Positions 12,442-33,135 are shown, counted from the first letter of the stretch. The stretch is DNA of 64,000 nucleotides from an uncultured Bacteroidales bacterium (GCA_964644135.1 CAZXWD010000001.1:16882-80881); one strand, 5' to 3'. Program-made: numbers and translations. The notes: a model not told the origin generated them from the letters alone.

Positions 12442-15886
<3,445 letters not shown>

Positions 15887-15936: not shown

Positions 15937-18900
15937 TTATTTCCAGTCCGAAGACCCACCGGTACGCCTCTTTCTTTTGTAATCGCTCTTTTTAATGTCA
16001 AGATCCCACTGAAACCATGTCTTCATTTGAGAAGCACCGGAACCGGCAGGAAGGATTTTTATAAGCCTGTTAACCCACTTAGCATCCCCGGGCTCATTTC
16101 CCTTTACTGTTTTGCTCTGGTAAAACGCCTTCTTGTCGAGCCATTCTTTAATATCATCCGGTTCAGTTCCCATATCTTCAAGAGTATCCCAGGCCCAATC
16201 AGGAGTGTATTCGTACATAACCCATGGAATGAATGCCTCTGTGAAAGTCAAAACATCAGTTATATAGCCAAGTATAGGCATTGGATATCGTATCAGAAAC
16301 AACAAATTATCAGGAGTGGCAAAATACAACACGTCTCCAAGCAATCTCTGCCTTACTATATCTAAAAGGAAATCTCTGGATTTTTGCAGTGCTGTTTTTT
16401 CATCATCATCATCATCATCCATCATAGCTGCTATCATATATGCCATAGCACTGGCTACCTGAATCGTATGGTTAAGAAGTTTTCTAAAAGCTCTTTTGTC
16501 TCCAGGATCAAGATCGCTGTATTTGATATTCGAGCCTTCAGCCTGCCGATAAAGATACCTGGAGCTTTTCATGAGCTCCTCGACGGACATTTTGTTAAAT
16601 TTCGAATAGATCTCTTCCTGGCTGGTATCTGGCCCTGCAAATTTGTACTTCTTATGTATTTTTTCTTTTACAGATTTAGGCATCATGTTATACATAAGGA
16701 CATTAAAGCCTACGGCAGCAGCAGGATATATGCCTCTTCTGAAGTGTCCGTTCCTGTCGATGTATCCTTTAGCAAAATAATTCGCAATAAAAGCGGGCAT
16801 CCAGTTTCTGAATTCCATCAGAGCTGCCCCCCCAGGTTTGTACCCTAAAAGTATCTGGTTGGCCACACCATAGTCACCATGGATTTCACGTACATTGTCC
16901 TGATAGGTTCTTCTTCTGCTTAACTCAATAGCAGGTTTTCCAGGTTTTAACTCACCTTTCCAGTCGTACCGGCTCCATTCCTCCTGGCTAAATTGTCCTG
17001 CATAGGCCACACCATGATTGACAAACTCGACAGCAGAAACAAGTGCCAGCGCTGCACTGGTAAATCCTTGTTTAAGTTTTTTGGCACTGTCAAGACTGTG
17101 TTCATGAGTTACATCGAGTATGTTGTGGTACCTGAGCAGTTGTCTTGTCTTCCAGGGGTTAAAAATTACCCTGGCAAAGCCTCTTGCAAATTCAAGATCT
17201 GTAAGATTCACTTTGTTTTGCAGAATACCAATTCCCAGGTTAACCGCCTGTGCTTTCCAGTTCCAGGCAAGAGAACGCAATGCAAGGGCAGACATGAGAA
17301 AACGTATCGTGTTGCCAAGCCACAATGCCATTCCGGGCTCGGTATATCCGTAAATCTGTTTATCCCCGTACTGTGATATAAACTTCAATGTGTTTTGGAA
17401 AGGAGTTTCCAAAGGATTGTCAAGAGAAAATCTTTTTTGGAAAAATTCATGTAAAGGAATGACTTTCTCCATGTGCCATTTCCTGGTCTTACTGAAAAGG
17501 TGCTGTTCCATTACTTCCCTTCGGTTTTCACTTTCTAAAAGCACTTTACCTATCCTCTGGTTTCCGACAACACCTATATTTCGTACCCTGCCTTTACTTA
17601 CAGGATCCTGTTTTTTGTACAGCTTTTTAGCTGTGTTATAATAATCTCTCAGAACAGTAATATCTCCGTTATGAATATCGAACTGTTCTTTAAGCTCATA
17701 ATACCTGTATGTTTTCTCGCCGTCTGCAGTCTTAACCTGTATTTCTACTCCATCATATTTAGAAGGAGCAAGAAGTTTGCGAAGGCCTTTGTGCCAGGGT
17801 GTCAGTGTTAAAGCACGCAGACCATACTGTTTGATCGAGCTTCTCTTTCCGGCAAATACCTGTGGTGCTTTGATCAAAGGCTGTACTCTGGCAGCTTTAT
17901 TCGGATTATCCATGATCGCCCTGTGCTTGTCATCATACTTGGCATAAAAATCATAGATGTATCTTATGAATAACCGCTCTGTAGGATTCATCTCAGCTGT
18001 GGCATTCTTGCGGATGTATTTAGTGTCTCCCTGCTCTGTAGTTATTATGCCCCAACGGATTTTGAATCCATAGTCTGCCTTAGCGCCCCGGTACTTGAAT
18101 TTTCCAAAGAGAACATCTGAAGGTTGCCCAAAGAACAGGTTCATCATTTTCTTGATGTTTATATGTTCTTCGTCAACTTTAGATCTTTGATCACGAATGA
18201 CTGTTGCATAGTATTGCATCGTGGCATGTTGAATACTGATCAGCCTATCGTTTATGAAACCAAAGTTTTTAACGAAACCGCCAAGATCTCCGCCAAACTC
18301 GATCCCTTCTTCAAGTGCTCTCGCCTCATCAAGATCAAGGTTTTTTCCAAGCATAAACATGGCAATCGTTGCCAGCTTGTAGTCGTTGTTGCCTTTTTTG
18401 TTTTCCTGTCGAACCTGTTTTACAATCGTCCGGATAGACATATACTCATGGAAATAAGTCTGCAGGGGTCCGGCAAGCTTAGGTTCCATGTCTTTAATTC
18501 TCTCCCAGTAATAGATCAGCCTGTTGGATGACAGGTTCATCAGGTTATCCAATGAGCCTATCTCAGCTATGATCTCAGCATATGTTTCCCTGTCTTTCTT
18601 AAACTTCTCCTGTTGTGCCTCGGACATGTCCGGCTTGATCGTTTTTATCGAGTCCAGAGTGGTCAGTTTTCTCTTTGGAATGCCTAATTCATCTCTTGCA
18701 ACACTGTCCGACTCATCAGATCTGAGATGGAGCAAGGTATGAATATCTGCCTGTGCAATTTCCTCATCGGTTAATCCTTTTGCTCTGAGTTGTTGACGAA
18801 TGGAAGATGCAGGAGAAAGAATTGAAAAACCGGTTTCGTTACTGATTGTATCAAGCGTCTCACCTTCAGGAAGCTGTTCATTGATCCATACCAAGGCCTT

Positions 18901-21900
18901 GCGCTGTATTTCAAGGGCCCGGTTTGAAAGAGTCTTTAATGCTCTTTCATCCCTATGGAACGACTGGAGGGTTTCAAGGTGTCTTTTCTTATGTATCTCG
19001 ACCATTTTGGCCGTTCTTTTAGGAACTTCTTTTACAGGAACAACTTCTTCGAAGGTGACATTTGTTACTTTTCCATCTTCGTTCATCTCGAAGTTGATCG
19101 GTATAATGCCCATTTTATTGATCTTATGACCGTTCTTTTCCTGCATGTATCTGTAGAAGTTCACTTGCATGCCATGCTGAACTCTTTTGCTGTCCTCTGT
19201 ATCGGCAAAAGGCTTTTTCATTCTTGCACCGTCCTGGGCTTTAGCATACTTATCGGTCAGTTCTCCGTCTGCGTCATGGACTTTATCTACCGAGGTTTTG
19301 AAGTCGTAAATATCTCTGGAGCCGTCCGGGTGGATCCTCTGATAGTCTATGTGCCCTGCCAGGTAATCATCAACTGAGGCTACTTTTTCCTCAAAGATCT
19401 CTTCCAGGCCTTCAGGATTAATTTTCTCATCAATGTATTCATTGATCTTATCAGCTAAGGTTTCAATTACCTCTTCAGATATATAATCAGTTGCGTTGCT
19501 GGGTATAGCTTTGCCTTCACGTATTGCCTGGATAGTTTCATGAAGCATCGTTCCTACGTCTCTCTGATGATCCCACATGGCCATCACCTCTTGTATCCGT
19601 TCACGGATCTCTTTGCTCGACATTCTCGGCAAATTGTTTACTGTACGGATAGACTGTTCTTTGAAAACAACAGATTCAGCTGCCCTTCGTTTATTAAAGC
19701 CCTGTGCCTGCATAGATTTGATCAAAGCAGAGACAGACTTAATCGGTGTTTTGCCGTCCGGATGCGTGTAGGAATGACTGTCCTTGTCGAAATCCACTTC
19801 CTCCCCCTGGTTTTTCTGGAACTGTACCATTTTCATCTTGCTGTCTTCGGAAATGATACCGTCTTTGTTGTTCCAGATAGCTTTTGCCATGTCCATGGCA
19901 ATGTCTTCTTTGGTGTCCTGACGGAAATATCTTTTCACCTCCTGCCAGAACTCGGCAACTGCTTGCTTAATCTGTTTCCAGGTGGTGTCAGCGGCCATGA
20001 TTTCCGCGGCGTAATCAGTTCCCATTCTACCTATTGCAATGACGGCTTCCTCTTCAGTGCCGAACATCTCGATCAGTTTTTTCTTTGTCGGATGATCTTC
20101 AGGAAGCGCATGCCAGTAAATGTGAGCGTGTTCATGATAATAGGTTGACTGTACTGCATTATCAGGATCAATGTAGACAGCATTCCCGAAAGCAGCACCG
20201 ATCTTATTGGCATCAAAATACTCAAGGTGGCCAAAGGTTTTCTTGACATACCTGATAAATGCAGCCCTGTTATTGAAGACCACGACTGAAGGATAATGTT
20301 TACGAAACTGCCCTGCAATGAATGACTGAACATCCGGATCTTCCGAGGCAAGCATTTCTCCAATAGCATCACCTTTGTTCATATACTTAACCTCATCACT
20401 GTCCTGATGTTGAGCAGGATCTTCATAGAGACGTATCTTATAGATGAAGAGTCCTTTTTTCCGGGTTCCTTTCGCAAAGTTCTTGGTATGGTCAAACGAA
20501 GCGTTTTCTTTCAGGTCTTCAAGATCAGCAAATCCTTCTTGTTTTGCCCAATCATTAGGGTCTTTTAATTTATCGATACCGGAATAGTACCCGCCCGGGC
20601 CAACTTCAATTAAAGTACCATCAGGAAGTTTATACAATCCGGATTCAAGCTGTTGTGTCCTCGAGGTTGCTGTTTTTCTTCCCGATTTGATTTTTTCAAT
20701 ATTGTGTGGTTGCATTGCCAGAGGTTTAGCAAGCCTGGTTTCATCCGGACCGTGAGGATTGAACCGTTCCATAAACCTTTCTTTTCTTGCATCGGTCATC
20801 TTCGGGGTTTGACCGTGCTTGTCTTTGTAAAGCCAATCTGCAGGAGCATGTATTTCCGCATCGTATCCTATTTTTACGGCTGCTTTTACACCGGCCTCAT
20901 CGACACCGCTCTGACCGCCGCTTCTGACAAGTCTTGGCCTGTAGGTGAGTTTTGGGTTTTTCAGTACTTTTTCGAGGAACTCATGTACGATTTCATCAAC
21001 ATCAGACTGTTCTATGCCATTTTTAGCAAAGGTGTCCAGCCCATTACCTGCAATGTTTATTTCCTCCGGTTTGTATTTGTTTATAAGATCAATGGTTTCA
21101 TTAACAAGCCGCTTCATTTCTGAAGGGGTATGCAGTTCGTTCCAGGGAACTTTATGATATCTTTTTCCGTTATCAGTAACGAACTTCTTTGTAGCTATTT
21201 CGCCTCCACTTTCATAGTTTATGGCTATGGCTATGGTAAGATCCGCCTGAGCGTTTCGTTTTGTTCTGGAAGGATAACCTGTTTGTTTCGATTTTGTAAA
21301 AAGTATTCCATGACGGCGCTCACCCCGTTCTCTGGCCATTTGGACATTGTCATCGGCAAATTCTTTTATTACATCGGAAACCTTTTTATTGACCTTATCC
21401 GCACGGGATTTGAAGTAATCGATTGCCTTTTTTGCCAGTGGAGAATCTGCAAAGAGCTGTCGGAGCTGGCTCAGGTTTTTTGCATCTTTCATCTTAGCAG
21501 CAATTACTTTGGCAATCCTCTTGTAAAAATTAACACGGTACCTGGGATGTGTGAACGTAACCGGCCATTCACCGTTAATGTCAAATTCCGGGTGCGTTCT
21601 TAATATCGCATCATGTATATCCTGACGATCATAAGCACTTATCTGATCCAAATCTGCCTTTAGCCAGAAGTCGTACATTCTCTCGCCCAGCTCTACCATA
21701 TAGCTCGGAGATACCAGTTTTGTAAAGTTGCCGTTCCATGTGCTGAACGAGGGACCATATACATAAGCCAAATAAAGCACGAACTTGTCTTTCATCTCTT
21801 TGGGCAGCTTGTCAAAATCCCTGTGGATCAGCTGGAGTTTCTGCTGTGGAATATCGTTTCTTGCATACTGTTCAAGAATTTGCAACTTATGATTAATCGT

Positions 21901-24900
21901 ATTGCTGTACATTACCTTCTGGATCATTCCAAGAAAGGCATTACTCTCTCCTTCTTTTTCCACAAGTTCCCACAGTTCTTTCCTCAAGGTCTTAAATCCG
22001 AGGTCTTCAATATCGATTGCCTTTAGAAGCAACACATTGGTCATTGCCCTGTTAAGAGTCGCATTTTGATCATCATATAACCTGCGGCCAAGTATCGTCT
22101 CGTAAGCAAGTCGGATCTCGTTGAGTATGCTTCTTATGCCTTCGGTCATCAACAGGTTCCTACGAAGAACATATTTTCTTGCGATTTCCATTGAACGGGC
22201 AGCATTTCTGACATGTACCGACCATGTCATGTCCGGATTCCTGAGTGATGATGTGTCTATGGCATCAAGTCCGTTTAGCCTGACAAGCTCATAGGCGACT
22301 TCTGCTTTATTATATTCCTCAGGAGTGTTAGGAACCTCTCTTGATACATCAATGAAGTCCATGACCCTCTGGATATCTCTGGAGAGGTATTTCAATCGCC
22401 GGATCGTATCAAGAATTTCATGATCAATGTTTTTGTCCTTTCTAAGCTCTTCCCACATGACTTTGTCACTGAAAGATTCTCCGGCTTTCTTTTTCTTGCG
22501 CTCCATCTGGATATACCTTCTTCCGGTATATGATGTAAACAGAGCAGAAAGGTTGTCAATATGGTTACGTACAGCTTTATCTATTGCTTTAGGATCGGTA
22601 CTTCTGTCAAGCTCGGTATTGGTCATCAGTGAGGTCGTAAACATATTGGCCGTAATCTCATTAAGCCCCATATCTTCTATTTTAGGATCCTTTCCGTTGT
22701 CCAGTGCCATATTCAACAGGTTTCCGATATGGTTCTTTACAACTCCGAAGCGGTCCCTGACAAAGCCGTTCAGTACGATTTGTTTTTTCTGAAAATCTTT
22801 TCCTGTGCTTAAAAGGGGGATGGTTATATTTTCAAACCGGGCCTTGAATTTCAGTTTGTGCTTTTTAACGAAATCAAAAGTGGTCTGTAGCTTGGCCATG
22901 ATGCCGATGACTCTGCGGCCTACGTTGTTTTTCCTGTGGGCAGCAAGGTTGTCGCTGAGCAGGTTTTGTCTGCCTGATTCGCGGCCTTCTTTTTTGTTCT
23001 TTTCCCGGATGTTCTTAACGGTCTCATCGTAAGCCTTCAGGTTAATCGGTGCATTAAGCATATCGAACAGCTCCGGTCTGCGGTAGTCCTGATGTACCAG
23101 TCGCATGCTAAGGTTAACTTTTGCCTGCGGGCTTTCTGTTCCGGTAACTGTTTCTCCTTCCCTGTTTTTATGGAGTGTTTCAACAAACCTTTTGTCCCCG
23201 TCAAAATCACTTCCGGCAATAAGCTGGCTGTTCTGGTCAGTGATAATGATGTTGCCGGCTCCCGGAATATTTCCTTTCAGCCTGGCCACGTTATGCGAAT
23301 GGTAATCATCGGCAGGAACCCTGGTGACAATTACAAGTTCTCCGGGAACATAATACTTGCTTCCTCTTTTTTCTATCTCCCATTCCATTAACTTACCGGT
23401 ATCCGGATCAATCATATCCGGAAACTGCGTGGCATATTCAATCGCTTCTTTTTTAGTCTTGAACCCTTGTTCTATTCTTGCCCCGTCTATGTTAGCCAAG
23501 ATTTCCGGCATATGAACATTCTTTCCATTGGAAGATTTTCTCATTGGCCGAAGACCGATATCACCTACAGGAACCTCCTGCAGTGAAACCCTGTTAACCT
23601 GACGTTCCAGAACTTTCCTCTCAGCAATGGAGGCAAAGATCTTTTGCAGCATAGTAGCATAGTAAGGATTGGAAAGATCACCGCCTTTCCTAACATATTC
23701 CCACAGTTCAGGTAACTGATCTTTATTGATTTCGTTAAGCAACAGTCGGCGCTTCTTCTTATGGTCGAACTTATCGAACATCTCGATAAATTCATCCATA
23801 GCCTGCTGGTGGTTTTCATCCCACAGCTGACCGATACGATCTGCATTGGGCAGATTGATCATGTTACCTATAGACTGTTTTGCCTGCTTTAGCGTGTTCG
23901 GCCTTGTCGGGTGCCTGAGATCCTGCTGGATAAAGAAATTATCGTTAAACCTGTCAAACGACTCGATGTTCTCACTGACAAGGTTTTCTCCATCAAATAC
24001 TTTGTTGACCGGGCCTTCTGCCAGTTTTGTTCCTGATTTGAAACTGAGAGTGTCCAGCTTATTGCTCTTCATCAGTTGATAGATCTTTCCATAGATCGAG
24101 TCGGGAAACTGTTTTGCCAAATCATCAATAACAAGCACATTGGTTTTTGTCAGTGCCCTGGTTCCGCTTGGATCGACTAAAGAGTAAAGAGCCTTTGTAT
24201 GGTTAAGCTGATCGTAATGGTTCGTTCTGGTAAAGATCGACCCTATGGAGACGGCTAATTTGTCTGCAAAGGATCTTGTCATAAATTGAATGCCGTCAAA
24301 AATTTCTTCTCCGTTTATGACCGGATCATTTAAAATGGCATGTTTTTGTTTTTTGCCAACTCCGCCTTCGACGTGTGTGTTCGGGCTGTATCCTGGTGAA
24401 TTGGTACTCCCTGCACGTTTGACCATATCGACAAATCCATTGTCGTATTGTTCTGGCCTTCCAAAAGCGATCATGTCGCTTTCATATTTGTTAATGGCAA
24501 AATTGTAAAGGAAATTCTTGATTTCTGCTCTTCTTTTATCCGGATCGATCAAATCCTGGTCTTCTTTGGATATCCCTTCAATGATGAGACTATTTACCAT
24601 TTCGATTTCTGCTTCGATCTCTTCAGGTGTTGCCATGTTCTTTTGGTGCGGAGAGGCATCATAGATGGCTTTATATGTTTTGGCCCCGTTGGAATACTTT
24701 GGAACCTGTATTATATAAAACTGCTTTTTATCGCCGAACTGTCCCATGTATTGCTGATAGGTTTCAGCCTTGGCCACATTGTTACTATCGGAAGACCGGA
24801 AGAGCCTGAACAGAGTCATAATGATATCTGATTCGACCATGTCCCTGGATTCAATCGAATTACTTGTCTTGGCATCGAATATTCCAGTAACACGTGAGAG

Positions 24901-27900
24901 GCCTATCTCGTGCCTGCCGGTAATTGGGTTTGACGGAAGCTTCATGTGAAGCTGTATGATCCGGTTGTTCTTGTAAGGTTTGCCGTGACGCAACTCCTCT
25001 ATGCCTTGCATTGACCGGATCAGGTTCGAAGATTGTTCAAAACTGGCCTCGCGGTTTCCTTCGATGTTCGAAAAGTTAAGCGATATGTTACTTTCGTCCT
25101 TGAGTATGTTGACCAATTTGCCAATATTGGAACTTATCCTGACTTCTTTTCCGTCTATGATTTTCTTTCCAGGCTCCCGGGTAAAATAAGCAATGGCATT
25201 TTTGACATTCTGTTCTGTCGGCATATCAGAATGAAGGAATCCATTTTTAGAACGAATCGCAGTGAAGATGTTTGGCCTGTATATTTCTCTTGCCGTATAT
25301 TTTTTCTCTGTCTCAGGATTTTCCATGTATTGAAGCCAGAACTTGCTTTCAATACCTGTGATCAGTTCAAAAAACTCAGCATACAACTCGTTTTGTTCCT
25401 GGTACATTTCCTCATAGGCCTGTTCAGAACTTACTTCTTTTCTTTTCCTTTTTTCTGTGATCTCAACAGACCTGCTCATATAATCCTTATAGGCTGCTGC
25501 AAGGGCTTTATTAGGGTCTTTTATGCCTTTGTATGTGAAACTTCGCAGGGTTCTTTTCGTTGTTTCAATAAAATCATCAACACGCGCTCCGGAATTATAG
25601 GATTGAATAGAATATGTATTGTTTGCGTTCCTGTGCAGACCAACAACTTCCATAAGGTGCATGTTGCCATAAAATGCCTGCATGGATATGATCTGGTCAA
25701 AACTGATTATTGATTCATCTGCAAGTGCTTTGGCCAGATCTGGATATTTCTTTTCAAGCTTGGGAAGGAAAGCAGCCAATGTTTCAGGATTTTTCAAAGC
25801 GGCTTTAAATTCCTCGGACTTACTCATGTTCATGATCAGTCTCTCAGGCTCCTTCATGCCCTTACTTTCCAGGTGGTGTATGAAGTCTTTAAAAATAGCC
25901 CTGAGTGCCCGTACTTTCTGGTCGGCCGTGGTATAGAATTCACTGTCGTATTCGAACTCGAACCCGATCTTCTCACCTGTAACATCTGCTGTTCTGAGTA
26001 TGTCGTCGTGATATTCTTCGACAAGATCCCTGGCATCGTCTATGCCCATGCTTTCAAGAGCGTCTATGATAGCATTAAAGAGGTCTTTAGCTTTAAGATA
26101 TCCCAGCTCGACAAGTTCCTTAGCGAAATCAACAATCAATGTCCTGAGCTTCATGTTCTCTTCAGGGGTCCTGGCAAGGTCTTTTTTGCCGCCTGTACGT
26201 TTGGCCAGCTCATCTGCGATCTGGCTGCCGAGATCTTTCAGTCTCTCTTTCTTTTGCTTAATCTTTTCCTCGTCTGTAAGTTTATCTTCGACAATCTCGT
26301 CTGTTTTATTCTTTTTCAGTTGGCTCTTTTGCTTTCTTTTATCAGGAATATAAGGGTCTTTAATATTCAGAACAACAGAATAAACTCTTAAGGCTTTTGA
26401 TCCTTCGATACGTTCCATTAGAGATTCTGCTTCTTTGGCCAGAGCTTGATAATAAGACTGATCTGTTTGATAGTTTTCTCTAAGAGTTTTAAATTCTATT
26501 CCGAGAAGTTCTTTTATGTTTTCAAAGTCCGGCTCAGAATCTTCCTCGAAAAGTTCTTCAAGAAAAGGATCCTCTTTTTTCTTTTTCAGTCTGTTTTCCG
26601 CGTATTTTCTTACCTGATCAATGGCGTTTATCTCTTCTGTTCCCTCATCGATGACTCCTGCATTACCATACAGATCAGAATTTTTCCTATTTGATGCGAA
26701 AAAGAAACCCTTTTTTGCTGAAGACGCACCCGTTAATGCTCCTCTCTTGCTCTTATCGAATTTTTCTATCTTGTCTGTCGAGCCATGATATACTATTGAC
26801 TTGTCTTTACTTTCCGGAAAAACATCATCCAAGTATGCGGAATATTCTTGTTTTGTTCCGATCTTAACAAGTTCAGGATTCTCATTGAATAAATCGTCAA
26901 CACCTTCTTTGACTTTTGTTTTTTCGAAGCCTTTGTTTTTTGATCTCTCTCCCCATTTGCTAAACTTTTCAAGATCTTCAGCAGAACCTAATATGTGTAT
27001 CTGATCGGGTTCAAAGACTACATATACATCTGTATCGATCGGATCTTTTGTGTCTTTTATGATTACAGCATCATTTCCTAACTTAACAGCCCTATCTATT
27101 AGTGTTGATATCCTATTTTTTAATTTTCCTTTGGAGGGCTTTGCTTTCTTTTTGACGATTATTTCAAAGTCAAAGCTGTACGGGTTTTTTTGATCCGGGG
27201 CCCTGGTAACAACAAGTTTAACCTCGTAACCTTTCTTGAGCAGCTCTGTGATCTTATTGTCGGCTTTGCTCTGATAAGGAATGCCGCCTACATCCACACC
27301 ATTGATACTTGCTTGCAACAAATGCTTATAAGGCCTGCCGGTTGTTGTCTGACGCAAGCGTTTCTGATCAGGAGTCATCTTGTTTCTCGGGGTGTAATTC
27401 AGATCGAGGATATCTCCTTGCTGAACTTGCCTCGGGCTGGCTCCGGACTTACCGCCACGGCTCCTGCGATTGGAATGAAAGGTCGGCTCATTCTCTATTT
27501 CAACGAGCTCGTATCCTTTCTCATCAAGTTCCTTTACAAGTTTTTCTTTCTTGATTTTTTTCTTTGCTGATTCGTCAGTTACTTCCCCTTCTTTCTTTCC
27601 GCTCTTAAGTATTGTTTGCTTTTGCTTATGGAGCTCATCAAGTTTAGTCTTCAAGGTCTTGATCCTGCTCTTATACATATTGATCCAGTCACTGTCAGTG
27701 GTAAAACCGCTTTCCAGTGCTTCATCAAGCTGCTCCTGTAGTGTATTCAACTGGGCAGATGTCGAAGCGATCTCGTCATTCACCTCTTTAGTAAGATGTT
27801 CTATCTTCTTGTCGCGCCTTATCCTGTGTTTCTCAAGACGCTTCTTACGCATTTCTTTGGCCTGTGCTTCACGTTCTGCCTCTTCGGCGCCCTTCTTATC

Positions 27901-30900
27901 AGCTTCGGCCTTAGTTTGCTCGTCAGTGGTCTTAAAGAACTTCTCAGCAGCTTTTTCCTGGAAGGCTGTTCTGTACTGATCAGCAAGTTTTTGTATCGGG
28001 GTAACATCTGATTTCAGCGTACCGGATTCTTTCTTAATGGTAACGATGTTCTCAAGCGTTGTCAGTTTACTTGCAATATCCTGCTGGATCGTTGCTATCA
28101 TACCCCGGGAAAGATTGCGCTGTTTGGACTCACTCATTGCCTCGAGCTGGTCGTACAGTTTAGTCAAGTACTTTGCAACACGTTCTGCCTGTGCAACTGT
28201 TATCCGTGTGTTTTCTGGGTTGTCTCCCTGAAGATCCATTAACGTGTTCCATACCTTTTCAGGAACATCCCTGTATGGATTAAAAGTTATGCCGTAGTCC
28301 TGGGCGTTTTGTTCAATCTCAAAGTCAATATCATTCTGATCAGTAACAACGGTAGGTTCTATAATGCCGCCTTTTTTGGAGCTTCTGAAATCTGGCTTGC
28401 CTTCTTTTTCTACGAGGTTGATTTTCTTGCCGTCAAAGGTCTCACCAGGGGCAAGGCGTTTTAATGTCTTGTTTATCCTGGCCAGTTTGTTTAAGGCAGA
28501 GACAAATCGTTCATCATCCGGTGGAACATTTGCTTTTGCAAGCGTACCAAGTTCTCTTTGTGTGTTGTACTTATCCTGATGAAGTTGTGCATACTGTTCA
28601 ATGGCAAGAGGGGCTTCCTTGTGGTTTTCAATCCCTCTTTCTTTCAATATCCTTCTGTATTCTACCTCGCTTTTTTCCAGCTCGAAGAGATCCTTCTTCA
28701 ACTCATCGATATCCTCTTGCGGCTTGCCCTGTTGTGTTTTCTCCCTGATCTTTTGGAGCAGCTCTTCCTTGCCTTTTATAGCATCGTCCAATAAAATGGC
28801 TATATTCTCACTATTCATTTCTTTAGCGTCGTTTATAACCATCTTATGCTTCTGGTTGTTGATATACCGGATCATAGTCGGAGCGTTCTGCTCAAATGCC
28901 ATCCTTTCTTCCGGACTTAGTTTGCCCATGTTCTCCCGGTAGGTTTCTGCCATGATCTGGCCAAGCGTATTACCACCTCCCATACCGATACCCATCATAA
29001 AGGTCATGGCCGTAAAATGGAACAACTCGCTTTTATCCAGGAACAAATCGTCGAACTGCTTTTTAAAGTCGTCCCAATGTTCAGTATCCCGGTACATCTG
29101 CCAGGTGGTCTGTGCTGTCTCTTCTGAGGTTTCACCAAAGCCCCTTCCGATAAACCTGCCCCCGATATTGGTCAGCCTGTCTACATATTCTTTCATCCGT
29201 CCCTTAAAAGCCATATTGATGAACTTAGGGATCATTACCTTCTGGCCGAGCTTTGTAATAAAACCTTCCCCGAAAGCACCGAACATTCCGGAAAGAAAAT
29301 CTGCTTCATCTTGAATGACCCGGTTTCCGCTGTGCAATAGTCCCGCGGTTTGATATTCCAATCCTGAATAGGCTCCTCTTGCCAGTAATCTCTTTCCCGC
29401 CTCAGCAGCTCTTCTGACTTTGTTAGTTCCTTTGTATGTTCTTATAAGACCGGCTTTTCTTAAGTTTGCCAGCGGCTTGACAAATTTACTTGCCAAACCT
29501 ACCAGCAAGGCACCTTCGGCCATAGGTTCCAAAATAGCCAGTGTCGGCCCCATCATTTCGCCAAAATCTGCTGCAGAAAAATCTTTGTATTCGGTCCTGG
29601 TCTTTAAGGATTTTTTAACCGTGGGCTCTATCAGCTTATCGATCCCTATTTCCTGCATAGTAGTCATCGCTGTGTTGGAAAGTTGCTTTTGGGTAGACAA
29701 AGAAGAATAAGTCATTGGATACAGGCTTTGTGTTGCTTGCCTGTATGCCATATCACCTGTTTTCTTTATATTATCCCATGCACGGCTAAACCATCCGTCT
29801 TTTACAGATCTTTCTTCGTCTTCCAGGTATTCTACCGGTAACCGGTTCATCATTACCAGGGGAGCAATCGCCCGCATTTGATGGTGAAGACCTTCTTCTC
29901 CGTACAGTCTTTCGTAAGGCCCGTTGGCATGAGATCCGTATTTGTCTTTCATAGACTCTACCCAGGCGCCCAGATGAGTTTTGGCATTGTGGGTGAGGTT
30001 TACTTTGTCTTCATATTCTGTTGCCAGAACCTGTAAGACCATGTTCAGAGCATCCCTGGCTTTTGTGCCTTTGGGTACAACATCCATCAGGTTAAAGTCG
30101 GTTTCGTTTATAGCTCGTTCTGCACGAAGCTGCTCGTACTTTTTAGGATCCCCGTCTGCTTTGAAAAGATCCATAGACATGGCCTCGACAAACCTCAGCT
30201 CATCTTTCAAGTACTTCTTTTCTTTTTCATCGTCAGTGGCCTCCAGGGCTATTTGCAATTCTTTATGCCGCTCTTGCACTTTCTGCCTTCTCTGATCGAG
30301 CAGGCCATAGATTTTTGATCTGATATCTGAGATTTCGCCTTGTTTTCTAACAAGCTGTTCCTGATCGACTGTCGCTCCTTCTCCTTCAGGATTCTTGATC
30401 TTGTTGAGTTCAGCAAGTTTTTGACCTAATTGTTCTTTTAGATCAAATTCCATATTATCTTCTTCGCTCATGAATTCCCGGGCCAGCCAGTCGCTTCTTT
30501 GATTGAGCATTTCGCGGGAGGCCTCTACCGGCTTTGAAGTAAATTGCTGACCGGCTTTTTCTTCCATTTTCTTGGTGTAGTCGAAAAAGTTCAGTGGGCC
30601 GGTCTCAAGTTTTTCTATAAGTATTTTGCGTCTCTCTCTTAGTTTTTCATATTCAATAGAACGGTTCCTGTTTGGTTCAGATGATAATCCGGCAGGTCCC
30701 ATTAAATGTGCTTTAGAGTCTGTCTGTTGATCAAACTCGTAGATTTTCTTTTCAAGGTCTGCTATTTCAGTTCTAATGCCAGCACGTTCTTCATCAGCCT
30801 TTATTTCCGCTTCGCTACGCTGGTATGTCTGGTACTTTCCCCACTTTGTGTTGATCCTTTTACGAACCATGTCCATAAATGGCTTCATAGTAGGATCATC

Positions 30901-31635
30901 AGCGTACTTCTCGGTCAAGTTTACAAATTCAGTTGCCTTGTGGCTCTTTGCAAGTATGTTATTGTCGTTGTCGCGAATGTAAGTTGCCTGGTTGTATTCA
31001 ATAGCTTCCGGAACGATTTCTCCGCTTATGGTATCCATCATTCCATCTTTTGTCCTGACAAACCTGTTTGGATGATCATTGTACTTGTACTGGCTCGGAA
31101 AGTGATCCCCGGGCTCTAAAGGTTCTTCTCCGAATTCCTGGTAATATCCCCTGTAGTCGTATTGATGTTCCGGATGGTCTGGATTTGGATGCAGGCCCAT
31201 TTTTTTGGACATGTCGTGATACCACTTCAGGAACGAATCTTCATCGACATTGTCCTTTTTTAACGTACCGTAAGTTCCAAAATCGGCAGTGTCGCTTTTC
31301 TTTTCTAACCAGCTTTTGTATTCCTGAAAATCATCAGGAAGCTCTTTCGATGTGGTTTCTGGTTGTGGATCATTTTCGGTAGGGACGGGTTGTTTTGGCT
31401 GTCCTTTTTTTTTGCCAAGGATTTCCCGTTCGATTTTTTCATCGTCCCAGCCGGACTTTAATAAATCCTCATAGCTATGATACTTGTTATTGACATTGTA
31501 AAATCGCGGAAGCTCTGTAAGTTCATCTTCAGTCCAGCCTCCGTTGAGCATTTGCTGCTTGGTATAGATCTTATTGTCGACCGGATTTTTGTAGCGTACT
31601 TTTTCTGTATCCGGTGAGGTCATTGTCATTGTCAT
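15937..31635 (-). CDS. giant 5232-aa multidomain virion protein: RNAP-like DPBB core plus polyvalent effector domains
   Basis: Uninterrupted ORF from ATG to TAA in the standard code. Motifs located by codon counting and confirmed on the DNA: DFDGD, GGQSGVDEAG, HEHAH, PD-(D/E)XK set and D6 run. Sits directly downstream of the tail genes. Confidence 0.85.
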   Translation of the reverse strand: MTMTMTSPDTEKVRYKNPVDNKIYTKQQMLNGGWTEDELTELPRFYNVNNKYHSYEDLLKSGWDDEKIEREILGKKKGQPKQPVPTENDPQPETTSKELPDDFQEYKSWLEKKSDTADFGTYGTLKKDNVDEDSFLKWYHDMSKKMGLHPNPDHPEHQYDYRGYYQEFGEEPLEPGDHFPSQYKYNDHPNRFVRTKDGMMDTISGEIVPEAIEYNQATYIRDNDNNILAKSHKATEFVNLTEKYADDPTMKPFMDMVRKRINTKWGKYQTYQRSEAEIKADEERAGIRTEIADLEKKIYEFDQQTDSKAHLMGPAGLSSEPNRNRSIEYEKLRERRKILIEKLETGPLNFFDYTKKMEEKAGQQFTSKPVEASREMLNQRSDWLAREFMSEEDNMEFDLKEQLGQKLAELNKIKNPEGEGATVDQEQLVRKQGEISDIRSKIYGLLDQRRQKVQERHKELQIALEATDDEKEKKYLKDELRFVEAMSMDLFKADGDPKKYEQLRAERAINETDFNLMDVVPKGTKARDALNMVLQVLATEYEDKVNLTHNAKTHLGAWVESMKDKYGSHANGPYERLYGEEGLHHQMRAIAPLVMMNRLPVEYLEDEERSVKDGWFSRAWDNIKKTGDMAYRQATQSLYPMTYSSLSTQKQLSNTAMTTMQEIGIDKLIEPTVKKSLKTRTEYKDFSAADFGEMMGPTLAILEPMAEGALLVGLASKFVKPLANLRKAGLIRTYKGTNKVRRAAEAGKRLLARGAYSGLEYQTAGLLHSGNRVIQDEADFLSGMFGAFGEGFITKLGQKVMIPKFINMAFKGRMKEYVDRLTNIGGRFIGRGFGETSEETAQTTWQMYRDTEHWDDFKKQFDDLFLDKSELFHFTAMTFMMGIGMGGGNTLGQIMAETYRENMGKLSPEERMAFEQNAPTMIRYINNQKHKMVINDAKEMNSENIAILLDDAIKGKEELLQKIREKTQQGKPQEDIDELKKDLFELEKSEVEYRRILKERGIENHKEAPLAIEQYAQLHQDKYNTQRELGTLAKANVPPDDERFVSALNKLARINKTLKRLAPGETFDGKKINLVEKEGKPDFRSSKKGGIIEPTVVTDQNDIDFEIEQNAQDYGITFNPYRDVPEKVWNTLMDLQGDNPENTRITVAQAERVAKYLTKLYDQLEAMSESKQRNLSRGMIATIQQDIASKLTTLENIVTIKKESGTLKSDVTPIQKLADQYRTAFQEKAAEKFFKTTDEQTKAEADKKGAEEAEREAQAKEMRKKRLEKHRIRRDKKIEHLTKEVNDEIASTSAQLNTLQEQLDEALESGFTTDSDWINMYKSRIKTLKTKLDELHKQKQTILKSGKKEGEVTDESAKKKIKKEKLVKELDEKGYELVEIENEPTFHSNRRSRGGKSGASPRQVQQGDILDLNYTPRNKMTPDQKRLRQTTTGRPYKHLLQASINGVDVGGIPYQSKADNKITELLKKGYEVKLVVTRAPDQKNPYSFDFEIIVKKKAKPSKGKLKNRISTLIDRAVKLGNDAVIIKDTKDPIDTDVYVVFEPDQIHILGSAEDLEKFSKWGERSKNKGFEKTKVKEGVDDLFNENPELVKIGTKQEYSAYLDDVFPESKDKSIVYHGSTDKIEKFDKSKRGALTGASSAKKGFFFASNRKNSDLYGNAGVIDEGTEEINAIDQVRKYAENRLKKKKEDPFLEELFEEDSEPDFENIKELLGIEFKTLRENYQTDQSYYQALAKEAESLMERIEGSKALRVYSVVLNIKDPYIPDKRKQKSQLKKNKTDEIVEDKLTDEEKIKQKKERLKDLGSQIADELAKRTGGKKDLARTPEENMKLRTLIVDFAKELVELGYLKAKDLFNAIIDALESMGIDDARDLVEEYHDDILRTADVTGEKIGFEFEYDSEFYTTADQKVRALRAIFKDFIHHLESKGMKEPERLIMNMSKSEEFKAALKNPETLAAFLPKLEKKYPDLAKALADESIISFDQIISMQAFYGNMHLMEVVGLHRNANNTYSIQSYNSGARVDDFIETTKRTLRSFTYKGIKDPNKALAAAYKDYMSRSVEITEKRKRKEVSSEQAYEEMYQEQNELYAEFFELITGIESKFWLQYMENPETEKKYTAREIYRPNIFTAIRSKNGFLHSDMPTEQNVKNAIAYFTREPGKKIIDGKEVRISSNIGKLVNILKDESNISLNFSNIEGNREASFEQSSNLIRSMQGIEELRHGKPYKNNRIIQLHMKLPSNPITGRHEIGLSRVTGIFDAKTSNSIESRDMVESDIIMTLFRLFRSSDSNNVAKAETYQQYMGQFGDKKQFYIIQVPKYSNGAKTYKAIYDASPHQKNMATPEEIEAEIEMVNSLIIEGISKEDQDLIDPDKRRAEIKNFLYNFAINKYESDMIAFGRPEQYDNGFVDMVKRAGSTNSPGYSPNTHVEGGVGKKQKHAILNDPVINGEEIFDGIQFMTRSFADKLAVSIGSIFTRTNHYDQLNHTKALYSLVDPSGTRALTKTNVLVIDDLAKQFPDSIYGKIYQLMKSNKLDTLSFKSGTKLAEGPVNKVFDGENLVSENIESFDRFNDNFFIQQDLRHPTRPNTLKQAKQSIGNMINLPNADRIGQLWDENHQQAMDEFIEMFDKFDHKKKRRLLLNEINKDQLPELWEYVRKGGDLSNPYYATMLQKIFASIAERKVLERQVNRVSLQEVPVGDIGLRPMRKSSNGKNVHMPEILANIDGARIEQGFKTKKEAIEYATQFPDMIDPDTGKLMEWEIEKRGSKYYVPGELVIVTRVPADDYHSHNVARLKGNIPGAGNIIITDQNSQLIAGSDFDGDKRFVETLHKNREGETVTGTESPQAKVNLSMRLVHQDYRRPELFDMLNAPINLKAYDETVKNIREKNKKEGRESGRQNLLSDNLAAHRKNNVGRRVIGIMAKLQTTFDFVKKHKLKFKARFENITIPLLSTGKDFQKKQIVLNGFVRDRFGVVKNHIGNLLNMALDNGKDPKIEDMGLNEITANMFTTSLMTNTELDRSTDPKAIDKAVRNHIDNLSALFTSYTGRRYIQMERKKKKAGESFSDKVMWEELRKDKNIDHEILDTIRRLKYLSRDIQRVMDFIDVSREVPNTPEEYNKAEVAYELVRLNGLDAIDTSSLRNPDMTWSVHVRNAARSMEIARKYVLRRNLLMTEGIRSILNEIRLAYETILGRRLYDDQNATLNRAMTNVLLLKAIDIEDLGFKTLRKELWELVEKEGESNAFLGMIQKVMYSNTINHKLQILEQYARNDIPQQKLQLIHRDFDKLPKEMKDKFVLYLAYVYGPSFSTWNGNFTKLVSPSYMVELGERMYDFWLKADLDQISAYDRQDIHDAILRTHPEFDINGEWPVTFTHPRYRVNFYKRIAKVIAAKMKDAKNLSQLRQLFADSPLAKKAIDYFKSRADKVNKKVSDVIKEFADDNVQMARERGERRHGILFTKSKQTGYPSRTKRNAQADLTIAIAINYESGGEIATKKFVTDNGKRYHKVPWNELHTPSEMKRLVNETIDLINKYKPEEINIAGNGLDTFAKNGIEQSDVDEIVHEFLEKVLKNPKLTYRPRLVRSGGQSGVDEAGVKAAVKIGYDAEIHAPADWLYKDKHGQTPKMTDARKERFMERFNPHGPDETRLAKPLAMQPHNIEKIKSGRKTATSRTQQLESGLYKLPDGTLIEVGPGGYYSGIDKLKDPNDWAKQEGFADLEDLKENASFDHTKNFAKGTRKKGLFIYKIRLYEDPAQHQDSDEVKYMNKGDAIGEMLASEDPDVQSFIAGQFRKHYPSVVVFNNRAAFIRYVKKTFGHLEYFDANKIGAAFGNAVYIDPDNAVQSTYYHEHAHIYWHALPEDHPTKKKLIEMFGTEEEAVIAIGRMGTDYAAEIMAADTTWKQIKQAVAEFWQEVKRYFRQDTKEDIAMDMAKAIWNNKDGIISEDSKMKMVQFQKNQGEEVDFDKDSHSYTHPDGKTPIKSVSALIKSMQAQGFNKRRAAESVVFKEQSIRTVNNLPRMSSKEIRERIQEVMAMWDHQRDVGTMLHETIQAIREGKAIPSNATDYISEEVIETLADKINEYIDEKINPEGLEEIFEEKVASVDDYLAGHIDYQRIHPDGSRDIYDFKTSVDKVHDADGELTDKYAKAQDGARMKKPFADTEDSKRVQHGMQVNFYRYMQEKNGHKINKMGIIPINFEMNEDGKVTNVTFEEVVPVKEVPKRTAKMVEIHKKRHLETLQSFHRDERALKTLSNRALEIQRKALVWINEQLPEGETLDTISNETGFSILSPASSIRQQLRAKGLTDEEIAQADIHTLLHLRSDESDSVARDELGIPKRKLTTLDSIKTIKPDMSEAQQEKFKKDRETYAEIIAEIGSLDNLMNLSSNRLIYYWERIKDMEPKLAGPLQTYFHEYMSIRTIVKQVRQENKKGNNDYKLATIAMFMLGKNLDLDEARALEEGIEFGGDLGGFVKNFGFINDRLISIQHATMQYYATVIRDQRSKVDEEHINIKKMMNLFFGQPSDVLFGKFKYRGAKADYGFKIRWGIITTEQGDTKYIRKNATAEMNPTERLFIRYIYDFYAKYDDKHRAIMDNPNKAARVQPLIKAPQVFAGKRSSIKQYGLRALTLTPWHKGLRKLLAPSKYDGVEIQVKTADGEKTYRYYELKEQFDIHNGDITVLRDYYNTAKKLYKKQDPVSKGRVRNIGVVGNQRIGKVLLESENRREVMEQHLFSKTRKWHMEKVIPLHEFFQKRFSLDNPLETPFQNTLKFISQYGDKQIYGYTEPGMALWLGNTIRFLMSALALRSLAWNWKAQAVNLGIGILQNKVNLTDLEFARGFARVIFNPWKTRQLLRYHNILDVTHEHSLDSAKKLKQGFTSAALALVSAVEFVNHGVAYAGQFSQEEWSRYDWKGELKPGKPAIELSRRRTYQDNVREIHGDYGVANQILLGYKPGGAALMEFRNWMPAFIANYFAKGYIDRNGHFRRGIYPAAAVGFNVLMYNMMPKSVKEKIHKKYKFAGPDTSQEEIYSKFNKMSVEELMKSSRYLYRQAEGSNIKYSDLDPGDKRAFRKLLNHTIQVASAMAYMIAAMMDDDDDDEKTALQKSRDFLLDIVRQRLLGDVLYFATPDNLLFLIRYPMPILGYITDVLTFTEAFIPWVMYEYTPDWAWDTLEDMGTEPDDIKEWLDKKAFYQSKTVKGNEPGDAKWVNRLIKILPAGSGASQMKTWFQWDLDIKKSDYKRKRRTGGSSDWK
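19036..19803 (-). other. PD-(D/E)XK (Cas4/RecB-like) nuclease domain inside the giant protein (aa ~3945-4200)
   Basis: Motifs GTMLHETIQ, LAGHIDYQ, IYDFKTS (D4111 encoded at 19303-19305) and QVNFYRYM. Confidence 0.65.
20122..20136 (-). other. HExxH zincin metallopeptidase motif HEHAH (aa 3834-3838)
   Basis: The reverse complement reads tat tat cat gaa cac gct cac att tac tgg (YYHEHAHIYW). Confidence 0.55.
20890..20919 (-). other. SLOG / MoCo-carrier (YpsA-like) signature GGQSGVDEAG (aa 3573-3582)
   Basis: Matches the GGQTGVDRAA-type loop. The partner motif RTKRNAQADLTIAI lies upstream of it. Confidence 0.5.
23194..23208 (-). other. DFDGD metal-binding motif of an RNAP-type double-psi beta-barrel (aa 2810-2814)
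   Basis: The reverse complement reads att gcc gga agt gat ttt gac ggg gac aaa (IAGSDFDGDK). The flanking VIVTRVPADDYHSH parallels beta-prime VLLNRAPTLHRL. Confidence 0.75.
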
Positions 31636-31647: not shown

Positions 31648-33135
31648 TTAATTTTTTTTCTTGGGGGCCGCATTGCCTGATCCGATTTCTGGCTGCTCTG
31701 TATTAGTCGGCTCTTCTTCTTCTTCGACGTAATTATAGTTCAACTCGTTATAATTACCCGCACTTTCCTTGTCCATTTTCATCGGTACCATTACATCGAA
31801 ACTGTATAGGTAGAACACGTTTCCATCCTTATCGGTTAATTCCTGCATTTCCAGGTTTAAGGATTGATTTCCGACCGGTGTAGAAGGAGCATGAGGCAAA
31901 GGATCTCCAGGGGGATTTACGGGGCTAATGCCTTTTCTTTTCAATATGTCTTCGTAATAGCTCTCGTGCGTGGTCAATCTTATTTTTGCAAGTTTTTTTC
32001 CGCCTACAGTGATAAATTCAACATCGTTCATTGATCCATTCTGCACAAATATTGACTGGTTTGACTGTGCGGTTATCCTCTGCAACTCTCCTTTGCCATC
32101 GATGAAATACATATCGCCCCCGGTATAATAGTCAACAGGTACCTGATCCCTGCTGCCTGATTTGTGAGGTATCACGGCTGTGGCATCCTGGATATAGCCT
32201 TCCTGTTTCGAATAAATTTGCTTGTAGAACGGCGTATCTTCAAATTTAACTTCCGTTTCTTGGGTGTTGTTTCTAATTTTCGCCTGTTGGATCCGCTGAT
32301 GTGCCTGTTGCGCCTCCATAATATTGGAATACGTTTTATATTCCTCTTCCAGCCATTTTATGGGGTCGTCACTGTAGAGTTTTTGTCTTGTCTTTTCATC
32401 AGGAACAGCCTCAAGAAATTCCTTGTCTAATGCCTTTTTTTCTTTTTGGTAATGTTGGGCAACAAAGCCTCTAAGATCTCCTATTAATTTTGCTGAATAA
32501 TATCCTCCTCCGGGAGTGCTAATATGAGCCCCCTGTGCTATTCGTTGACCTTGTGCGTCCATCTCACCAAGGAAGTTATGCAGGTTAAAAGGCTTTTGTC
32601 CTTGATATTCAAAAGCAGCATCAGCACCTCTGCCTCCGGATATGATTTCCTGGTATTCGGCCCTGTGCTTGTTGTATTCGGACCTGGAAATAGAGCCTTC
32701 TTGCCAGTCTTTTTCAAGGTCTGCCAAACTCGCGGCAGTTGTCTTATACAGGTTAATTGAAGGGTGAGAGCTGAATTCTAACTTGATCTGATCCAGACGA
32801 TTTAGCTTGTCAGGATCATTTATGAAATCCTGGTCATGAGTGAGATTACCGACTTCTGTGAGATATTTTTCTAAGTCTTTATCAAGTGCTTCTTGATATA
32901 CCGGAGTAAGGTTGTCGTGACGGGCCTGTATGGATAGCAACTGATCTGTTATACGATTTGCATATTGCCTGGCATCGTGTTGTTTACGATATTCCCATTG
33001 TTCCTGCCTGAATTCATCCTGCTTTTCTTGCTGCTCCATCATGTATTTCTGACGGGCAGCATCCATCATAGTGCGTCGGCCAGTGGAATAGTCATGAACA
33101 TAGTTTAGTCCGGTTCCGAAATTTGTGTACGCCAT
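31648..33135 (-). CDS. hypothetical virion (possibly ejected/cargo) protein
   Basis: ATG start, 495 aa. Lies between the tail genes and the giant gene. Gln/Glu-rich N-terminal half. Confidence 0.5.
   Translation of the reverse strand: MAYTNFGTGLNYVHDYSTGRRTMMDAARQKYMMEQQEKQDEFRQEQWEYRKQHDARQYANRITDQLLSIQARHDNLTPVYQEALDKDLEKYLTEVGNLTHDQDFINDPDKLNRLDQIKLEFSSHPSINLYKTTAASLADLEKDWQEGSISRSEYNKHRAEYQEIISGGRGADAAFEYQGQKPFNLHNFLGEMDAQGQRIAQGAHISTPGGGYYSAKLIGDLRGFVAQHYQKEKKALDKEFLEAVPDEKTRQKLYSDDPIKWLEEEYKTYSNIMEAQQAHQRIQQAKIRNNTQETEVKFEDTPFYKQIYSKQEGYIQDATAVIPHKSGSRDQVPVDYYTGGDMYFIDGKGELQRITAQSNQSIFVQNGSMNDVEFITVGGKKLAKIRLTTHESYYEDILKRKGISPVNPPGDPLPHAPSTPVGNQSLNLEMQELTDKDGNVFYLYSFDVMVPMKMDKESAGNYNELNYNYVEEEEEPTNTEQPEIGSGNAAPKKKN

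Follow-up and report, generated by a model that had tools for sequence, protein, structure and literature searches.

A giant open reading frame in a divergent crAss-type phage locus: a probable single-gene virion RNA polymerase 'transcription block' with a candidate slot for accessory modules

A stretch of 64,000 nucleotides from an uncultured Bacteroidales bacterium (GCA_964644135.1 CAZXWD010000001.1:16882-80881), which as a whole is referred to here as the window, carries on its minus strand a single open reading frame (ORF) of 5232 codons, and the question raised by this locus is what kind of protein such a giant ORF encodes. A first-pass annotation had seen in it a virion RNA polymerase (RNAP) newly joined to a chain of effector domains of the kind found in polyvalent proteins. 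Our analysis leads to a different answer, i.e. that the giant ORF is very probably the single-gene, fused version of the 'transcription block' of crAss-like phages, which in phage phi14:2 is made up of the adjacent virion proteins gp67, gp66 (the RNAP) and gp65 (which bears a zincin), and in phage crAss001 of the equivalents gp47, gp50 and gp49. We draw this conclusion because a core of the gp66/gp50 type, a zincin, a nuclease and a gp65-type C-terminus are all found in this one chain, which is encoded downstream of muzzle and ring protein genes. The ORF is thus a highly divergent copy of a gene type already described, with ART and SLOG modules that we have not found reported for it.

Translation of the ORF yields 5232 amino acids (aa) with one stop only, at the end, in agreement with the ORF listing and with the first-pass annotation, all of whose quoted motifs stand at the residues named there (DFDGD at aa 2810, GGQSGVDEAG at aa 3573, HEHAH at aa 3834 and a run of six aspartates, D6, at aa 5073). 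From the N- to the C-terminus, the parts of the protein are the following.

15937..31635, minus strand: whole ORF, 5232 aa with an ATG start, probable fused virion-RNAP 'transcription block' polyprotein
31411..31605, minus strand: N-terminal double repeat ending in GW, aa ~11-75, two units of ~30 residues, with a counterpart in relative P0002 (aa 3-59)
28966..29568, minus strand: Gly/Met-enriched stretch, aa ~690-890, within the poorly conserved N-terminal third (aa 1-1890)
26950..27228, minus strand: ART-PolyVal C-terminal half, aa ~1470-1562, ...DVYVVFEPDQIHILGS, located upstream of the N-terminal half
26326..26943, minus strand: ART-PolyVal N-terminal half with a helical insert, aa ~1565-1770, NPELVKIGT...VYHGS...GFFFAS
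21436..25968, minus strand: two-barrel virion RNAP core, aa ~1890-3400, homologous to phi14:2 gp66 and crAss001 gp50
23194..23208, minus strand: catalytic DFDGD, aa 2810-2814, aligned to DFDID 1361 of gp66 and DFDVD 1483 of gp50
20761..21318, minus strand: cpYpsA-type SLOG, aa ~3440-3625, GYPSRT...ADLTIAIA...GGQSGVDEAG, in the slot after the core
20401..20733, minus strand: small domain (the 'ASCH-like' segment), aa ~3635-3745, SGRKTATSR...QEGF, recurring in the family
19801..20328, minus strand: zincin-like metallopeptidase, aa ~3770-3945, H3834-E-x-x-H3838 ... E3862, assigned by conserved residues
18991..19803, minus strand: Cas4/RecB-type PD-(D/E)XK nuclease, aa ~3945-4215, assigned by Pfam, profile and fold
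17536..18993, minus strand: helical linker region, aa ~4215-4700, conserved in 16 family representatives
16036..17538, minus strand: gp65/gp49-like C-terminal module, aa ~4700-5200, helix plus acidic run ...MIAAMMDDDDDDEK

A profile of the core matches phi14:2 gp66 with 113.6 bits over residues 855-1287 and 1319-1925 and crAss001 gp50 with 115 bits over residues 935-2245, and both matches are colinear. The homology extends across the region that includes the two barrels together with connector, bridge helix and trigger loop, i.e. about 1000 residues and not the motif alone. In the catalytic loop, GsDFDGD is aligned with GSDFDID of gp66 and GSDFDVD of gp50, and the DxDxD pattern is kept across the family. 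These matches required a profile of 140 relatives, as single-sequence searches fail to reveal them.

At the other end of the protein, a profile of aa ~4740-5170 finds phi14:2 gp65 with 78.2 bits (residues 941-1218 and 1272-1412) and crAss001 gp49 with 38 bits (residues 875-1296). gp65 ends in a hydrophobic helix followed by KDEDDEE (...LIAGAAKDEDDEE), the counterpart of ...MIAAMMDDDDDDEK in the giant ORF, and because of this comparable helix with its acidic patch the D6 run can be regarded as a family feature. The hydrophobic C-terminal region with D6 singled out by the first-pass annotation is therefore present, but what had looked like a novelty is simply the known gp65/gp49 module. Transmembrane segments were considered and rejected, since no 19-residue window anywhere in the 5232-aa protein reaches a Kyte-Doolittle value of 1.4.

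Between core and C-terminus lie two putative enzymes. In the zincin, H3834, E3835, H3838 and E3862 are nearly invariant in our alignment of the family (A4). With hhalign this domain is weakly placed (E 0.007) on residues 196-358 of gp65, a segment that contains HEIMH at 245, and likewise on gp49; in Pfam it matches no family, MPTase-type models included. The nuclease has the residues expected of its type (G4028-T, H4032-E4033, D4097, D4111-F-K4113 and Q4157...Y4161), of which the K and the Q are invariant in the same alignment, and its motifs are also kept in crAss001 gp47, where the nuclease profile matches residues 1706-1888 with 70.5 bits and aGT, GxxD, IYD.KTS and QL..Y are all retained. 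The Pfam model PDDEXK_1 falls just short (E 8e-4, 19.9 bits, with a cutoff of 22). An AlphaFold (AF2) model of aa 3420-4215 has predicted local distance difference test (pLDDT) values of 85-95 over the nuclease and below 50 over the SLOG/ASCH portion. In a Foldseek search of the PDB with the nuclease model, EXO5, MGME1, Cas4 SSO0001, RecE and AdnAB come out on top with a probability of ~1.0, at modest E-values of 5e-4 to 3e-3, and the best matches in BFVD (to E 4e-15) are pieces of crAss-like phage giants, several of them already named 'PD-(D/E)XK endonuclease-like domain-containing protein'. The RNAP core with DFDGD, the HEHAH zincin and the PD-(D/E)XK nuclease, all of which had been proposed by eye, are thus borne out, and the comparison with phi14:2 gp66 and the crAss001 proteins that had been recommended at the time, once run with family profiles, establishes homology for core, C-terminus and nuclease.

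An important question is how widespread this arrangement is. A word-indexed protein search returns only the giant itself and one relative, P0002 (4939 aa). In contrast, an exhaustive HMMER search with a two-sequence profile of aa 2291-3390 as the query retrieves 140 cluster representatives, of which 82 have E <= 1e-30. Most of the 140 are giants (3000-5900 aa) whose middle part is the matched region; 65 are at least 4000 aa long. From these 140 representatives we built the family profiles that were compared with the GenBank reference crAss-like phages. The canonical layout consists of an N-terminal region of 1200-1700 aa, the core, a slot, the zincin, the nuclease, a helical region and a gp65-like C-terminus. 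The core (with its double-psi beta-barrel region) is found in 135 of the 140 representatives, the C-terminal module in 59, the zincin in 55 and the nuclease, with its motifs kept, in 43, whereas SLOG and ART occur in only six and three, respectively. Core and C-terminal module stand in one chain in 59 of the 135 core-containing representatives, and in 52 of these 59 the core is preceded by over 1000 aa. The usual arrangement in the family is the fused one.

The genomic setting is that of a phage. All genes from ~9.2 kb to 64 kb of the window are on the minus strand and form a virion module, and replication genes (helicase, primase-helicase and Sak4) occupy the plus strand at 1-8.9 kb. The landmarks of the virion module are these.

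55826-57871, minus strand: terminase large subunit
53594-55783, minus strand: portal
50763-52277, minus strand: major head protein (MCP)
38467..39309, minus strand: crAss tail ring protein 2 (Pfam CrAss_Ring_2, E 2e-7)
33756..37739, minus strand: crassvirus muzzle protein of 1327 aa, upstream of the giant ORF in the same operon-like block (Pfam crAss_MUZ, E 4.3e-78)
31648..33135, minus strand: 495-aa protein directly upstream of the giant ORF, syntenic with a 493-aa gene next to relative P0002; by its position it may be a small cargo protein

The giant ORF is located downstream of the muzzle and ring proteins on the same strand, in a crAss-type tail/cargo block in which the muzzle gene is followed by two small proteins (208 and 495 aa), the giant ORF, a 214-aa protein and collagen-like fibres. 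The same synteny is found around P0002, where the order is Ring_2, Ring_1, muzzle, a 240-aa gene, a 493-aa gene, the giant and a 199-aa gene. Among 50,697 phage records, the only match to the terminase is that of Azobacteroides phage ProJPt-Bp1 (Crassvirales, Suoliviridae). Since the two terminases are just 23% identical, the phage is, as far as its genes tell, a crAss-type virion of a very divergent lineage.

Further genes in the window were noted in passing. Three collagen-like repeat proteins, which PHROGs classifies as tail fibre, are encoded at 12442-14010, 14014-15252 and 52305-53582 (all minus strand), and the GC content is 0.46-0.48 over 12-16 kb as compared with ~0.42 elsewhere in the window. 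After the fibre genes, a family 2 glycosyltransferase (GT2) with tetratricopeptide (TPR) repeats and a methyltransferase/sulfotransferase-like protein are encoded at 9268-12401 (minus strand), and a GT2+TPR gene followed by a methyltransferase is likewise found downstream of the giant at the relative's locus (L001). That locus also encodes, at 29794-30066, a small protein with a precomputed Pfam match to Acb2/Tad1-hairpin, a family of anti-CBASS/Thoeris sponges; in the window, the methyltransferase-like gene is likewise followed by a 91-aa ORF (8991-9266, minus strand), which has no Pfam match.

Several points weigh against regarding the giant ORF as a fused transcription block. First, the N-terminal ~1900 aa are not linked to gp67 or gp47: hmmsearch, jackhmmer and hhalign gave no significant match of the N-terminal third to either protein, using a profile of only 5-9 sequences, so that a 'three-part fusion' is shown for two parts only. 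Second, there is no direct sequence match to any deposited phage or PDB chain unless family profiles are used. Megablast of the entire ORF and tblastn of the DFDGD region found nothing in the phage records, phmmer with both protein halves and the two-sequence core profile found nothing among PDB sequences, the core retrieved nothing from IMG/VR, either as a single sequence or as an alignment, and pairwise phmmer against the phi14:2 proteins gave nothing significant; family profiles alone succeeded. Third, with its terminase so far from that of the nearest classified crassvirus, formal membership of the phage in the Crassvirales is not established. Fourth, we infer packaging, ejection and cleavage of the protein as well as every one of its enzyme activities. 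Finally, the ART module is not in canonical N-to-C order and may be a dead remnant.

What else does the N-terminal third contain? The double repeat ending in GW, already pointed out in the first-pass annotation, is present and conserved in the closest relative (44% identity in aa 3-59 of P0002), and the region containing these repeats is detected in only four representatives. Of the 'Gly/Met-rich hydrophobic' stretches reported at aa ~690-890, the composition stands as a mild enrichment (a G+M fraction of 0.16 versus ~0.08), but the hydrophobicity does not, as follows from the Kyte-Doolittle scan above. As to the Lys/Glu coiled-coil-like sequence of the first pass, the K+E fraction is 0.25-0.26 at aa 1251-1750.

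The ART-like segment with its H-G-S/T signature was correctly recognized in the first pass, albeit not its domain order. A 241-aa tile reaches 34.1 bits with Pfam PF18760 (ART-PolyVal, cutoff 31.2), and a homologue search with the region gives 52 proteins (down to E 1e-32), almost every one of them pre-annotated as PF18760. In these homologues the N-terminal half corresponds to aa ~1565-1770, whereas the counterpart of the C-terminal half lies upstream, at aa ~1470-1562. With the halves put back in order, the resulting 'de-permuted' construct can be aligned over its full length with complete ARTs, e.g. P0144-146, and the junction, where an IHILGS end is followed by NPELVKIGT...YHGS, resembles the boundary of two tandem copies. 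Judged from these alignments, the module would be a circular permutant or else what is left of a tandem pair. By tblastn, the ART has no match in the phage records. In ProJPt-Bp1, a separate gene annotated as 'VIP2 actin-ADP-ribosylating toxin family' is situated within the head module (L006 7304-8458) and represents a further ART in a crAss virion block.

The SLOG-like loop GGQSGVDEAG belongs, as the first-pass annotation had surmised, to a SLOG domain, with PF12694 (cpYpsA SLOG) matching at E 3.4e-9 and 37 bits (cutoff 26.2) and phrog_10774 matching as well. The same module with the conserved loop is found in P0069, P0095, P0126 and P0133. When used as a tblastn query, the SLOG of the giant also hits, with 35-38% identity, the inside of the 'putative RNA polymerase' gene of the cultured Bacteroides phages PhiCrAssBcn1/2/3/20/25, close relatives of crAss001 in which this SLOG type lies near the N-terminus of the gp50 orthologue; in PhiCrAssBcn1 (OQ221536.1, L008 6057-6563) it occupies aa ~89-257 of a virion RNAP (vRNAP) of 2608 aa, with 35% identity. 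Uncultured phage cr10_1 likewise has a counterpart in this search, and crAss001 itself is not among the matches. The paper on the PhiCrAssBcn isolates makes no mention of a SLOG in the vRNAP.

The small domain that follows, taken for 'ASCH-like' in the first pass, shares the pattern G-x-[KR]-T-A-T-[ST]-R...EG[WF] with P0004, P0038, P0046, P0049 and P0088, and P0102 has the C-terminal part in common with it; going by these sequences, the segment is a real domain that recurs in the slot behind the core in at least six members of the family. Its kinship is another matter. There is no Pfam match, either to ASCH (PF04266) or to another family, a single-sequence search finds no homologues, and a seven-sequence profile finds nothing in the PDB. 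Aligned by hhalign with E. coli YqfB (validated as ASCH at E 2e-21), it attains a probability of 3%, with only the GRKT.T.R motif resembling ASCH, and its AF2 model has a pLDDT of 44 and is unusable.

SLOG and small domain together occupy a linker between core and zincin whose length varies strongly within the family, the median being ~100 aa, with 370 aa in the giant ORF and up to 1307 aa in relatives. A Pfam run on expanded slots and insertions of family members shows that the contents vary no less: P0005 has a full cpYpsA domain (E 3e-32), P0004 a NADAR domain (E 4e-17) plus a superfamily 1 (SF1) helicase (E 7e-21), P0095 cpYpsA plus NADAR, and P0014 ART-PolyVal plus NADAR, here inserted within the core. 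P0002 and P0088 have weak SLOG-type matches, and P0038, P0046 and P0049 contain Walker-A motifs and a second HExxH. The slots of P0126 and P0133 have long Pro/Ala-rich linkers of a different amino acid composition, which suggests that phages of high-GC hosts, possibly outside the Bacteroidota, also have members of the vRNAP-polyprotein family.

We tentatively propose, as a reading somewhat less likely than not, that crAss-like vRNAP polyproteins possess a hypervariable 'payload slot', mainly between core and zincin and sometimes with insertions inside or before the core, into which NAD/ADP-ribose-linked modules (ART-PolyVal, NADAR, cpYpsA and other SLOGs), helicases and kinase-like domains are swapped. 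Because the slot by the core has repeatedly captured SLOG, NADAR, ART and helicase modules, these data suggest that crassviruses deliver anti-defence or host-modifying enzymes together with their RNAP cargo. In a survey of viral NAD-ADPr systems from the Aravind laboratory (PMC9503650), virion-packaged ART, NADAR and SLOG proteins are considered counter-defence tools; crAss phages are not mentioned there, and the phage versions are described as 'typically standalone'.

Alternatively, the accessory modules, i.e. ART, SLOG and small domain, could be inactive debris or structural spacers, with only the RNAP, the zincin and the C-terminal module being of importance. The ART halves are indeed out of order, with the second copy lacking a recognizable C-terminal half, ART and SLOG are as rare as stated above, and the closest relative has a different SLOG and is devoid of this ART. 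Yet, GGQ[ST]G[VF]DEAG and GYPxRT...ADxTIAIA are strongly conserved in very distant members of the family; the ART retains YHGS and FFFAS, is locally up to 64% identical to free-standing ARTs and, once de-permuted, can be aligned with complete ARTs over its full length; and the recurrence of NAD/ADP-ribose-linked modules at several positions in the family argues for selection. We therefore regard debris or spacers as an unlikely explanation, albeit one to be taken seriously.

How new, then, is the architecture as such? In phi14:2, the block consists of the abutting genes g067 (1797 aa), g066 (2180 aa) and g065 (1421 aa, 'RNAP-associated'), with a total of 5398 aa, which is similar to the 5232 aa of the giant. 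According to Drobysheva et al. (bioRxiv 10.1101/2020.03.07.982082), the virion contains the RNAP gp66 as well as the proteins encoded by g065 and g067, and a Zincin-like protease, for which activation of the RNAP or digestion of peptidoglycan is considered, forms part of gp65 and its orthologues; the crystal structure of gp66 has been published (Drobysheva et al. 2021). The two phages have in common the RNAP core with its catalytic loop, the gp65-type C-terminal module with helix and acidic patch, a zincin N-terminal to this module and a position downstream of a muzzle-type protein. They differ in that phi14:2 has three genes where the window has one ORF, in DFDID versus DFDGD, in the absence of detectable gp67 similarity from the giant and in the nuclease that the giant has between zincin and C-terminus; nor were its ART and SLOG detected in gp65-gp67, which were not specifically scanned for them. 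In crAss001, gp47, gp49 and gp50, designated 'RNA polymerase-associated proteins', have been detected in virions and modelled as capsid cargo that is extruded through the tail (Bayfield et al. 2023, PMC10172136). Here, gp50 corresponds to the core, gp49 to the C-terminal module and gp47 1706-1888 to the nuclease with intact motifs, but these are three genes on two strands, the nuclease resides in gp47 and not beside the zincin, and no ART was detected.

The first-pass annotation had started from RNAP and cargo being separate proteins in crAss-like phages, so that their fusion in the window would be novel. This premise does not hold. Separate genes are the rule in the two cultured model phages only, and the joining of the RNAP and its two partner cargo proteins in a single huge polyprotein has been described before by Drobysheva et al. 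(10.1101/2020.03.07.982082), citing Yutin 2018. A review (PMC10136315) lists RNAP genes of up to ~6000 aa as a crAss-like phage hallmark, and Yutin et al. 2021 (PMC7886860) refer to the block as 'several large, multidomain proteins'. The giant resembles these fused genes in being one giant ORF with a DxDxD RNAP, its partners and a zincin; it differs in its extreme divergence and in its ART-PolyVal and cpYpsA modules, which we did not find described there.

Polyvalent proteins are reportedly associated with a MuF-type head-packaging domain or with a conjugative relaxase/type IV secretion system (T4SS) context. Pfam revealed no MuF-type packaging domain and no relaxase or T4SS domain in either half of the giant protein, whose context is the crAss tail/cargo block. 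The giant shares with polyvalent proteins (Iyer, Burroughs, Anand, de Souza and Aravind 2017) the large multidomain chain that is probably delivered with the virion, the combination of ART-PolyVal, metallopeptidase and nuclease and, likely, the logic of enzymes that arrive with the DNA and act early. Its backbone, however, is the crAss RNAP block and not a MuF- or relaxase-associated chain, and in the passages of Iyer et al. 2017 that were consulted an RNAP does not belong to the described polyvalent repertoire. The zincin and the nuclease match no polyvalent-specific Pfam model. Thus, the module set named in the first-pass annotation is there, with ART, zincin and nuclease all present, but ART-PolyVal is the only hallmark polyvalent domain among them.

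These comparisons also bear on the idea that the ORF represents an architecture not seen before, with a polyvalent effector chain newly attached to a virion RNAP to give a novel injected package. It would find support in the hallmark ART-PolyVal domain, in the lack of any tblastn match to the ART region and in our literature search, in which no paper connecting crAss RNAP proteins with ART, SLOG or NADAR modules came up. Against it stand the previously described fusion, which is the norm in the family, the orthology of zincin, nuclease and C-terminal module to parts of the known block, the presence of the same SLOG type in deposited crAss vRNAP genes and the lack of MuF or any other polyvalent-protein anchor in Pfam. 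What is known already comprises the fusion, the zincin and the C-terminal module, and in effect the nuclease as well, and a novel architecture of this kind appears quite improbable.

An even smaller chance can be given to the single ORF being an artefact of misassembly or of sequencing errors that erased true stops between three genes. Although the source sequence is known from one 81.6-kb contig only, P0002, which was independently assembled on 18+ contigs, is colinear with the giant ORF over ~80% of its length (aa 11-69, 352-1001, 1210-1501, 1890-3353 and 3717-5199), and the order of modules is the same as in dozens of other giants; a chimeric or misassembled ORF is therefore very unlikely, as far as such sequence comparison can tell. 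In addition, so many family members reach 4000 aa or more, and the base composition continues across the ORF without a break. An ORF by chance is ruled out, as the probability of 5232 consecutive stop-free codons at the base composition of the window is ~10^-148. From its location in a structural module and from the failure of Pfam and PHROGs to recognize an RNAP, one could suspect a giant structural or tail protein that contains DFDGD by accident, but colinear profile matches of >110 bits to two known crAss vRNAPs over ~1000 residues, with DxDxD conserved family-wide, lead us to reject it.

Very long virion-packaged RNAPs are also known outside of the crAss-like phages. The vRNAP of coliphage N4 (~3500 aa) and the RNAP of Thermus phage P23-45 (5002 aa), to which the giant is likened here by description only, are ejected in order to transcribe early genes, and the P23-45 enzyme is also of the two-barrel type, but is fused to the tape measure protein of a long-tailed phage. 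The N4 vRNAP is described as related to single-subunit RNAPs and not to the two-barrel enzymes.

Overall, the following scenario can be envisaged for the fused transcription block. As in phi14:2 and crAss001, the giant protein would be made late in infection, packed into the capsid as cargo (in the cargo zone) and extruded via portal, barrel and muzzle, ahead of or together with the DNA, and its two-barrel RNAP part would then transcribe early genes independently of the host polymerase. In this respect, the first-pass notion of an injected package, one that would transcribe early genes and may in addition act on the host, is reasonable by homology to proteins of phi14:2 and crAss001 that have been proven to be in the virion; it is the claimed novelty that fails. 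The zincin might process the polyprotein into its functional parts, or its target might be the cell envelope. The lineage has gained ART-PolyVal upstream of the core, and the cpYpsA SLOG together with the small domain in the core-zincin slot; in relatives, this slot is filled by a SLOG, NADAR, a P-loop domain or an SF1 helicase, and in one case ART plus NADAR lies within the core. The likeliest role of these accessory modules would be to modify host targets or to neutralize immune signals derived from NAD or ADP-ribose at entry, with the ART possibly modifying host proteins or nucleic acids, the SLOG binding or degrading nucleotide-derived signals and the nuclease acting on DNA ends.

What does this mean for the biology of crAss-like phages? 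A new fusion, as originally read from this locus, would not change current understanding, since giant fused RNAP polyproteins are an accepted crAss-like hallmark. Rather, the ORF and its relatives extend the known sequence space of two-barrel virion RNAPs and constitute a large unannotated branch, i.e. 140 relatives without similarity at the BLAST level to deposited phages, which profiles nevertheless link to gp66, gp50, gp65, gp49 and gp47. The feature of interest is the variable payload slot in vRNAP polyproteins, which apparently has not been described in the literature that we searched. As the same SLOG type is present in the vRNAP of the cultured PhiCrAssBcn phages, the payload idea is testable in an existing phage-host system. 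If it is true, the polymerase that starts the infection would arrive tethered to counter-defence enzymes.

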